Shown: one piece after another, positions 17,684 through 17,852 of the stretch | How the letters are laid out: the number at the start of each line of letters is the position of its first letter | Numbering within the stretch: position 1 is the first letter of the stretch | Source of the DNA: Escherichia coli | Lineage (GTDB): Bacteria > Pseudomonadota > Gammaproteobacteria > Enterobacterales > Enterobacteriaceae | Reading direction: 5' to 3' (one strand) | Assembly (NCBI RefSeq): GCF_022846255.1 | Contig: NZ_AP025682.1 | DNA length: 64,000 nucleotides | Position numbers and translations under genes: made by a program | Notes under the pieces: model-generated | The model's database searches: none | What the model saw: the letters and a program-made list of their open reading frames with translations, nothing else | What the model was told of the DNA's origin: nothing

Positions 17684-17852
17684 AAGAAAAAGGCAGCCTG
17701 TGGTTGCCTTTTGCCAATAATTCGCACACATTGCGGGTTACTGCTTTATTTTCGTTCAGTGCTGATAACGAACATCAACCTGCAAAACGAAGCGCATAGT
17801 TTAAAATGGCTATCATCAATACGCTATATCTGATGGAAAAAAATATGCCTAA
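17684..17852 (-). ncRNA. sraB: probable small RNA SraB in the yceD-yceF intergenic region
   Basis: Position inferred from my recollection of the K-12 annotation (about 169 nt, same strand as yceD); supported in sequence by a hairpin with T-run on the minus strand at about 17686-17713 where its 3' end should fall. Confidence 0.4.

Follow-up and report, generated by a model that had tools for sequence, protein, structure and literature searches.

What does the short region between yceD and yceF of Escherichia coli encode, where does its transcript begin and through what does it act? These questions are raised by one locus in the 64,000-nt stretch of E. coli DNA analysed here (contig NZ_AP025682.1 of assembly GCF_022846255.1; hereafter the window, to which all coordinates refer unless stated otherwise). 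An earlier note, made from the sequence alone, had placed a probable small RNA SraB here, at 17684-17852 and on the yceD strand. An Rfam scan of the whole window returned a match to SraB (RF00077) on the minus strand, running from 17851 to 17683 and covering model positions 1-169 of 169, with a score of 209.8 bits (E-value 6.8e-44), which exceeds the curated gathering score for this family (130 bits) across the full model. Alignment to sraB of K-12 (b4418, NC_000913.3 1146589-1146757) was gapless, with 168 of 169 positions identical: the sole difference, C versus U, falls in the hairpin 2 loop at SraB position 82 (window 17770), and a second mismatch in the aligned region is a single base in the yceF coding region upstream of sraB.

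In the annotated K-12 MG1655 genome (NC_000913.3), the ncRNA gene sraB is flanked by yceF, which is transcribed from the opposite strand, and by yceD, which shares its strand, with rpmF and plsX beyond, and the window has the same arrangement, with yceF divergent and yceD downstream of SraB on its own strand. Both the placement between the two genes and the strand proposed in the earlier note are thus borne out, and the element it described is the right one, while its coordinates were one base off, the true span being 17683-17851. These results confirm that the element is the known and already catalogued E. coli sRNA gene sraB (alias psrD), whose annotation dates back to 2001 and whose RNA has served as a model ligand of ProQ. 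The explanation that best accounts for what follows, and in which we have high confidence, is that the region is this sraB gene, whose product would most likely be a ProQ-bound regulatory RNA and whose first 60 nt as annotated would be mainly promoter or regulatory DNA.

Of 5426 complete E. coli genomes, 5424 contain the 301-nt region around sraB that was used as a query, 5318 of these with an identity of at least 99%. Beneath this region, the PGAP labels are only yceF and yceD, and the sRNA goes unlabelled in most E. coli records, so the practical value of the present work is one of annotation quality. The gene itself was already known; what we add are corrected coordinates, a likely shorter main isoform, an account of its apparently bidirectional terminator in terms of a ProQ motif and a conservation map. 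The features discussed below are collected in Table 1.

Table 1. Features of the sraB locus, with window coordinates where assigned and the fraction of alignment columns that are invariant among the ten genomes with full flanks.
Feature	Coordinates	Strand	Basis	Invariant fraction
yceD (DUF177), first gene downstream of SraB, same strand	17125..17646	-	ORF list and K-12 annotation	
Promoter-like TTGACT-17-TAATAT just after SraB terminator; probable yceD promoter	17656..17684	-	9/12 consensus	
sraB (psrD) gene as annotated, 169 nt	17683..17851	-	Rfam RF00077 and K-12 b4418 alignment	
Short SraB isoform, ~109 nt	17683..17791	-	Published dRNA-seq TSS mapped; three-hairpin fold	
AAAA motif (17712-17709), terminator hairpin (to 17688) and U-tract UUUUUCUUU (17691-17683)	17683..17712	-	Sequence, fold, invariance	0.97 (SraB 140-169, outside search pattern)
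yceF distal promoter candidate: -35 TTGCCT (17704-17709), -10 CACATT (17727-17732), TSS 17740	17704..17740	+	K-12 TSS 1146700 mapped, hexamer scan	
Hairpin 3 (SraB 111-135), upper stem and loop invariant	17717..17741	-	18-sequence alignment	
Hairpin 2 (SraB 61-101), sequence variable, structure kept	17751..17791	-	Compensatory changes	0.32
Candidate -10 TAAACT for internal TSS 17791	17798..17803	-	4/6 consensus, 6 nt upstream of TSS	
yceF proximal promoter: -10 TAAAAT (17802-17807), TSS 17815	17802..17815	+	K-12 TSS 1146625 mapped, hexamer scan	
Rfam helix 1 (SraB 18-40), long isoform only	17812..17834	-	Rfam structure line; four pairs	
yceF (7-methyl-GTP pyrophosphatase)	17845..18429	+	ORF list, K-12 and PGAP annotation, coordinate mapping	
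Candidate -10 TAAAAT for annotated 5' end 17851	17857..17862	-	5/6 consensus; inside yceF codons 5-6	
SraB 1-60				0.72
36-nt spacer to yceD ATG				0.92
yceF third codon positions				0.12
yceD third codon positions				0.64
yceD-rpmF spacer				0.39

The same Rfam scan returned matches elsewhere in the window, all of those listed here scoring above their own gathering scores. A full-length match to rne5, the element in the 5' UTR through which RNase E autoregulates, lies at 19712-20048 on the plus strand (260.1 bits), as expected upstream of rne in this region of the chromosome. The Hfq-binding sRNA STnc490 was matched at 24772-24895 on the minus strand (120.5 bits), and the PyrC leader and the ES036/CssrF sRNA on the plus strand, at 44744-44793 (68.7 bits) and 53924-53966 (47.9 bits), respectively.

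For comparison across species, species-representative genomes were scanned once with a 19-base degenerate pattern from hairpin 3, CCCGCNATGTGNGCGAANNNNTGGC, which occurred at 41 loci. Eighteen of these are enterobacterial—E. coli, E. albertii, twelve Citrobacter, Salmonella enterica subsp. arizonae and diarizonae, and one metagenome-assembled genome assigned to 'Raoultella'—and each of the six enterobacterial copies put to the Rfam model, those of Citrobacter, Salmonella and E. albertii among them, scores above the SraB gathering threshold (162-200 bits). The other 23 loci, from unrelated phyla, were set aside as chance matches, with 15-29% identity outside the pattern. The pattern was too strict to recover Klebsiella, Enterobacter, Yersinia or Dickeya, in which the literature reports homologs. 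As a separate observation, the SraB region at 4511-4839 of contig CAAEVH010000050.1 (L036), from a genome labelled 'uncultured Raoultella sp.', is nearly identical to that of Citrobacter braakii (L017), a likeness suggesting that this contig may be mis-binned or mislabelled.

The length of about 169 nt given in the earlier note agrees with the annotation but not with the dominant 5' end of the RNA in published dRNA-seq. A re-analysis of two such datasets placed the sraB transcription start site (TSS) 60 bp downstream of the annotated start, at K-12 position 1146649 (PMC7967276), which maps to window 17791 and gives an RNA of ~109 nt. A product of ~105 nt had already been seen by Argaman 2001, according to PMC7967276, where northern and RNA-seq detection of SraB in K-12 is also described and the Salmonella RNA is put at about 99 nt. 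An internal sraB promoter and a ~105-nt product have been described independently, with the full-length form present in late stationary phase (PMC8313858). The expression evidence, from the literature on K-12 and Salmonella, indicates that the short form of ~109 nt is probably the main SraB species, and the 169-nt boundaries carried forward from record to record probably overstate the usual RNA by 60 nt.

Folding and promoter comparison point the same way. The short form is predicted to fold into three hairpins at -33.1 kcal/mol (z -2.86), whereas the 169-nt form folds less distinctively (z -1.92); the three-hairpin architecture is also predicted for the Citrobacter and Salmonella copies. The candidate internal -10, TAAACT, is invariant in 17 of the 18 genomes, and the eighteenth has TAAAAT, which is nearer consensus. 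A hexamer scan found no good -35 for this internal promoter, the best matching 2/6 of the consensus. The candidate -10 serving the annotated 5' end occurs in E. coli and E. albertii only among the 18 genomes compared; at the same position, Citrobacter and Salmonella carry AAGAAT, AAGTAT or AAGGAT, by way of synonymous changes in yceF. The pattern of conservation of the two -10 hexamers agrees with an internal start rather than the annotated 5' end. The first 60 nt of the annotated gene would then be mainly promoter or regulatory DNA shared with the divergent yceF promoter, not a constant part of the RNA. Fur and FNR motifs have been predicted within the first 50 nt of annotated sraB, placed to regulate the internal promoter (PMC8313858). 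The predicted Fur-like stretch, ATTGATGATAGCCATTTT, lies at window 17803-17820 (SraB 32-49), in a conserved block with an invariant fraction of 0.80-0.85.

The consensus structure of SraB is retained by the homologs: when the Rfam structure was laid on the 18-sequence alignment, 92.7% of cells were paired, compared with 35-42% when the 3' partners were slid by 1-3 columns, in a set of homologs that was picked by a pattern within hairpin 3, that spans three or four closely related genera and for which the shuffle control ignores relatedness. Its parts have been kept in different ways. In helix 1, one of the four pairs shows a swap between CG and AU (12 versus 4 sequences); this stretch doubles as upstream or regulatory DNA of yceF. 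In the upper helix of hairpin 2 (SraB 70-95), five of nine pairs have changed on both sides, and sequence comparison thereby shows that compensatory changes have preserved hairpin 2 from genus to genus. In the alignment, hairpin 3 and the terminator, which make up the 3' module, prove almost invariant. All cells of hairpin 3 are paired, with six of its eight pairs never varying and the other two showing GU/AU changes only, and part of this invariance is forced because the search pattern falls there; all ten pairs of the terminator are invariant in the 18 sequences. Both elements never break yet hardly vary, and so carry no covariation information.

A rival reading is that the transcript encodes a small protein, either from a 13-codon ORF at SraB 55-96 or from a 16-codon ORF at SraB 121-171. 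In 15 of the 18 genomes the first keeps its 13 codons, beginning M-x-F-V-L-Q and differing synonymously in places, and the second is nearly identical throughout the set. Against the first, two genomes have lost its start (AGG), C. koseri has a version cut to seven codons, conservation does not extend to its C-terminal half, and the main TSS (SraB position 61) falls downstream of its AUG. The second is invariant DNA at all codon positions, its sole variable base being non-synonymous (T/S/A); it has no visible Shine-Dalgarno sequence, its AUG is in the loop of hairpin 3 and its stop codon (169-171) runs beyond the annotated 3' end of the RNA. We therefore rejected a coding role as scarcely credible, on the start loss, truncation and position of the first ORF and the lack of synonymous variation in the second; no conserved small ORF was found in SraB across the 18 genomes.

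At the 3' end of the RNA, the earlier note had seen a minus-strand hairpin with a T-run at about 17686-17713, which is essentially correct: the stem lies at 17688-17712 and the tail runs to 17683. The hairpin reads AAAAGGCAACC-ACA-GGCUGCCUUUU (window 17712-17688), followed by UCUUU. The AAAA at SraB 140-143 pairs with the first four U's of the tail, leaving UCUUU free, an arrangement invariant in the 18 sequences. On folding energy alone, the minus-strand hairpin is not beyond chance (34 nt, -11.2 kcal/mol, z -1.66; 15 of 200 shuffled sequences were at least as stable), because its stem contains an internal 1x1 AxC mismatch, between SraB A148 and C156 (window 17704 and 17696), which is kept in 18 of 18 genomes. 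Its significance comes instead from homology (the Rfam E-value of the family match) and from its invariance in the 18 enterobacterial sequences. A single A-to-G change would close this mismatch. A simple terminator scan called the SraB terminator on neither strand, in our own reading because the mismatch interrupts the stem, so that the remaining loop exceeds the length that the scan permits; the same scan called hairpin 3 on the plus strand, at the chance rate (1 found, 1.0 expected).

The hairpin had also been described as formally bidirectional. This is literally true, in that the plus-strand hairpin is followed by four T's, but it is weak, since those T's (17709-17712) are followed by GCC and pair with the A-run. 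A true bidirectional terminator, stopping plus-strand transcription as well, would draw on the fact that the plus-strand version is fully paired and more stable (-15.2 kcal/mol, z -3.25), the AxC mismatch becoming a G.U pair there, and on the TTTT after its stem. We nevertheless think such a terminator very unlikely. No plus-strand gene ends here, the plus-strand sequence upstream being antisense to yceD, and a candidate yceF promoter that overlaps the hairpin has its start site beyond it. The apparent bidirectionality arises because the plus-strand T-run is the complement of the AAAA motif 5' of the terminator, and for this A-run there is a published alternative account as a motif of ProQ ligands (PMC7367173).

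That account fits what is known of SraB. The FinO domain of ProQ recognises intrinsic terminators that carry four or more U's, and an A-rich motif 5' of the terminator marks its ligands (PMC7367173). SraB has a terminator hairpin of ten pairs (at least two being required) followed by the tail UUUUUCUUU, which supplies at least four U's, and directly 5' of the hairpin it has AAAA in all 18 sequences. SraB is highly enriched in ProQ co-immunoprecipitation, where it is among the best ligands; in vitro the two bind 1:1, and SraB touches the linker and C-terminal domain of ProQ as well as its FinO domain (PMC5393179). The class I Hfq module, a U-rich stretch upstream of the terminator together with a long single-stranded U tail, was not found: GGCAAAA lies upstream and four of the U's are paired. 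We infer that the terminator hairpin, with its 5' AAAA pairing to the first four U's, would be a docking site for ProQ that disfavours Hfq. Some association with Hfq has been reported, from Hfq CLASH; SraB abundance does not track Hfq binding, and in Klebsiella it was 4.5-fold lower in a delta-hfq strain.

No function has been documented for SraB (PMC8313858), an abundant and conserved enterobacterial sRNA, and its overexpression gave no biofilm or motility phenotype. In Salmonella Enteritidis, sraB has been linked to survival in egg albumen, in work cited in PMC7967276 and PMC3963941, and in E. coli SraB is induced after replication inhibition. Taken together with the features of its 3' end, SraB would most likely be a ProQ-bound regulatory RNA acting on as yet undocumented targets. 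The conservation map points mutagenesis to the covarying hairpin 2, to the invariant hairpin 3 and terminator, and to the promoter signals that overlap on both strands.

The overlapping signals bring in yceF. The first 7 nt of yceF overlap the annotated 5' end of SraB. For yceF, the mechanical ORF begins at an upstream in-frame ATG at 17806 (207 aa), compared with the annotated start at 17845 (194 aa). A 1-nt length difference in a T/A run between the two ATGs puts the upstream one out of frame in Citrobacter, Salmonella and E. albertii, and on this comparison the loss of frame supports the annotated start. Two yceF TSSs have been reported, at K-12 1146625 and 1146700 (PMC7967276 supplement). 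The distal promoter candidate lies antisense within SraB, its -35 in the terminator and its -10 in the loop of hairpin 3, and a transcript from its TSS at 17740 would overlap the short SraB by 52 nt. At the proximal promoter, the SraB internal -10 (TAAACT, minus strand) and the yceF -10 (TAAAAT, plus strand) overlap by 2 bp at a TTTAAA palindrome (17798-17807), with the two TSSs 24 bp apart, so that the two promoters may compete for RNA polymerase.

Might SraB, then, act in cis against yceF, as an antisense RNA to its 5' UTR and start codon or through promoter competition or collision? Overlap with yceF transcripts on the opposite strand is present for both forms of the RNA. The long form could pair with yceF as far as the seventh nucleotide of the coding sequence, start codon and presumptive ribosome-binding region included, and the distal yceF TSS gives a 5' UTR to which 52 nt of the short form are antisense. 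The two -10 hexamers overlap on opposite strands, and collision with yceF P1 has been discussed in the literature, where yceF is barely expressed while SraB is abundant (PMC7967276). Yet the dominant short SraB has no overlap with mRNA from the proximal yceF promoter, and only Escherichia conserves the promoter for the long form. The literature reports no effect on yceF, and one study found sraB insensitive to the overlapping yceF promoter (PMC7967276). On balance, we judge a cis role against yceF unlikely.

On the other side, yceD begins 36 nt beyond the SraB gene. TTGACT-17-TAATAT was the only promoter-like site called by a promoter scan of 17400-18100; both of its hexamers are invariant in all sequences that cover them, and its -35 starts in the SraB U-tract. 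After TAATAT comes a GC-rich 9-nt stretch, GCGCGCCCT, which leads directly into the yceD ATG (17646-17644), and the sequence between the candidate promoter and this ATG contains no Shine-Dalgarno sequence. If the site fires, the yceD mRNA would be leaderless or nearly so. As a discriminator, the GC-rich stretch resembles those of stringently controlled, rRNA-type promoters.

Alternatively, SraB could be mainly what is left when transcripts from an upstream promoter of the yceD-rpmF(-plsX-fab) transcription unit terminate early, in other words a cis-acting leader with a leaky terminator. Transcripts from 17791 would either stop at the terminator, and be seen as 'SraB', or read through into yceD. 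This view is compatible with the main explanation. SraB and yceD are co-directional and only those 36 nt apart, and the invariant AxC mismatch weakens the terminator stem to the -11.2 kcal/mol given above. Repression by ppGpp is common for promoters of the translation apparatus. Salmonella SraB is repressed more than 4-fold by ppGpp (PMC3963941), and promoters upstream of plsX account for about 60% of its transcripts, in mRNA that includes yceD and rpmF (PMC3896788). Argaman 2001, cited in PMC8313858, suggested that the terminator is read through in log phase, and in Dickeya PsrD is reported, in line with earlier observations, to be co-transcribed with the downstream gene (PMC6735904). Weighing against SraB being chiefly a leader, an invariant promoter-like site for yceD itself follows directly on the terminator, and SraB accumulates as an abundant, discrete, ProQ-bound RNA (PMC7967276, PMC5393179). 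Nor was a conserved antiterminator found: in predicted minimum-free-energy folds of the nascent RNA (positions 61-153), between 0 and 5 of the 11 bases in the 5' half of the terminator were paired in 17 of 18 homologs, with no common partner. We regard this alternative as somewhat unlikely, while a cis role as a yceD leader is plausible beside a role as an sRNA.

The proximity of so many signals also bears on how the conservation is to be read, since overlapping DNA signals—the yceD -35 and, on the other strand, the distal yceF promoter—could contribute to the invariance of the 3' module no less than RNA function. One could go further and suppose that the near-invariant block of ~100 bp at 17647-17741 is a stack of functionally coupled signals that jointly set the output of yceD-rpmF-plsX-fab, with an occluded yceF promoter on the opposite strand, a reading that we hold to be distinctly unlikely. 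Its components would be hairpin 3, the mismatched terminator, the promoter-like site with its -35 in the U-tract and the GC-rich discriminator running into the yceD AUG. A ppGpp-sensitive internal promoter and a deliberately imperfect terminator would then combine with a stringent-type promoter to yield a leaderless or near-leaderless yceD mRNA, and, were this true, ribosome and lipid synthesis would be linked.

Returning to the explanation that we prefer, a ProQ-bound regulatory RNA, SraB can be set beside several known systems. The window copy and SraB of K-12 (b4418) are alike in length, strand, neighbours and full-length Rfam structure, and the one loop base by which they differ is nothing of functional note. 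In common with ProQ/FinO-class ligands such as the cspE and malM 3' UTRs, SibB and FinP, SraB has been shown experimentally to be a ProQ ligand (PMC5393179). Compared with the small 3' UTR ligands, it is longer, has several hairpins and engages the ProQ linker and C-terminal domain more, as judged by HDX and SAXS (PMC5393179); and whereas FinP and the Sib RNAs have a partner RNA, none is documented for SraB. It shares with class I Hfq-dependent sRNAs an intergenic location, a terminator at its end, and some reported Hfq cross-linking and hfq dependence, but differs from them in having an A-run in place of the U-rich stretch and in lacking a long single-stranded U tail. Like SraF, a 5' leader upstream of alx that is annotated as an sRNA, SraB is co-directional with and directly upstream of the gene that follows, with read-through or co-transcription reported. 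Unlike such leader-type 'sRNAs', it ends in a strong and conserved structure of terminator type, beyond which the downstream gene has a promoter-like site of its own, and no alternative antiterminator fold was found in it.
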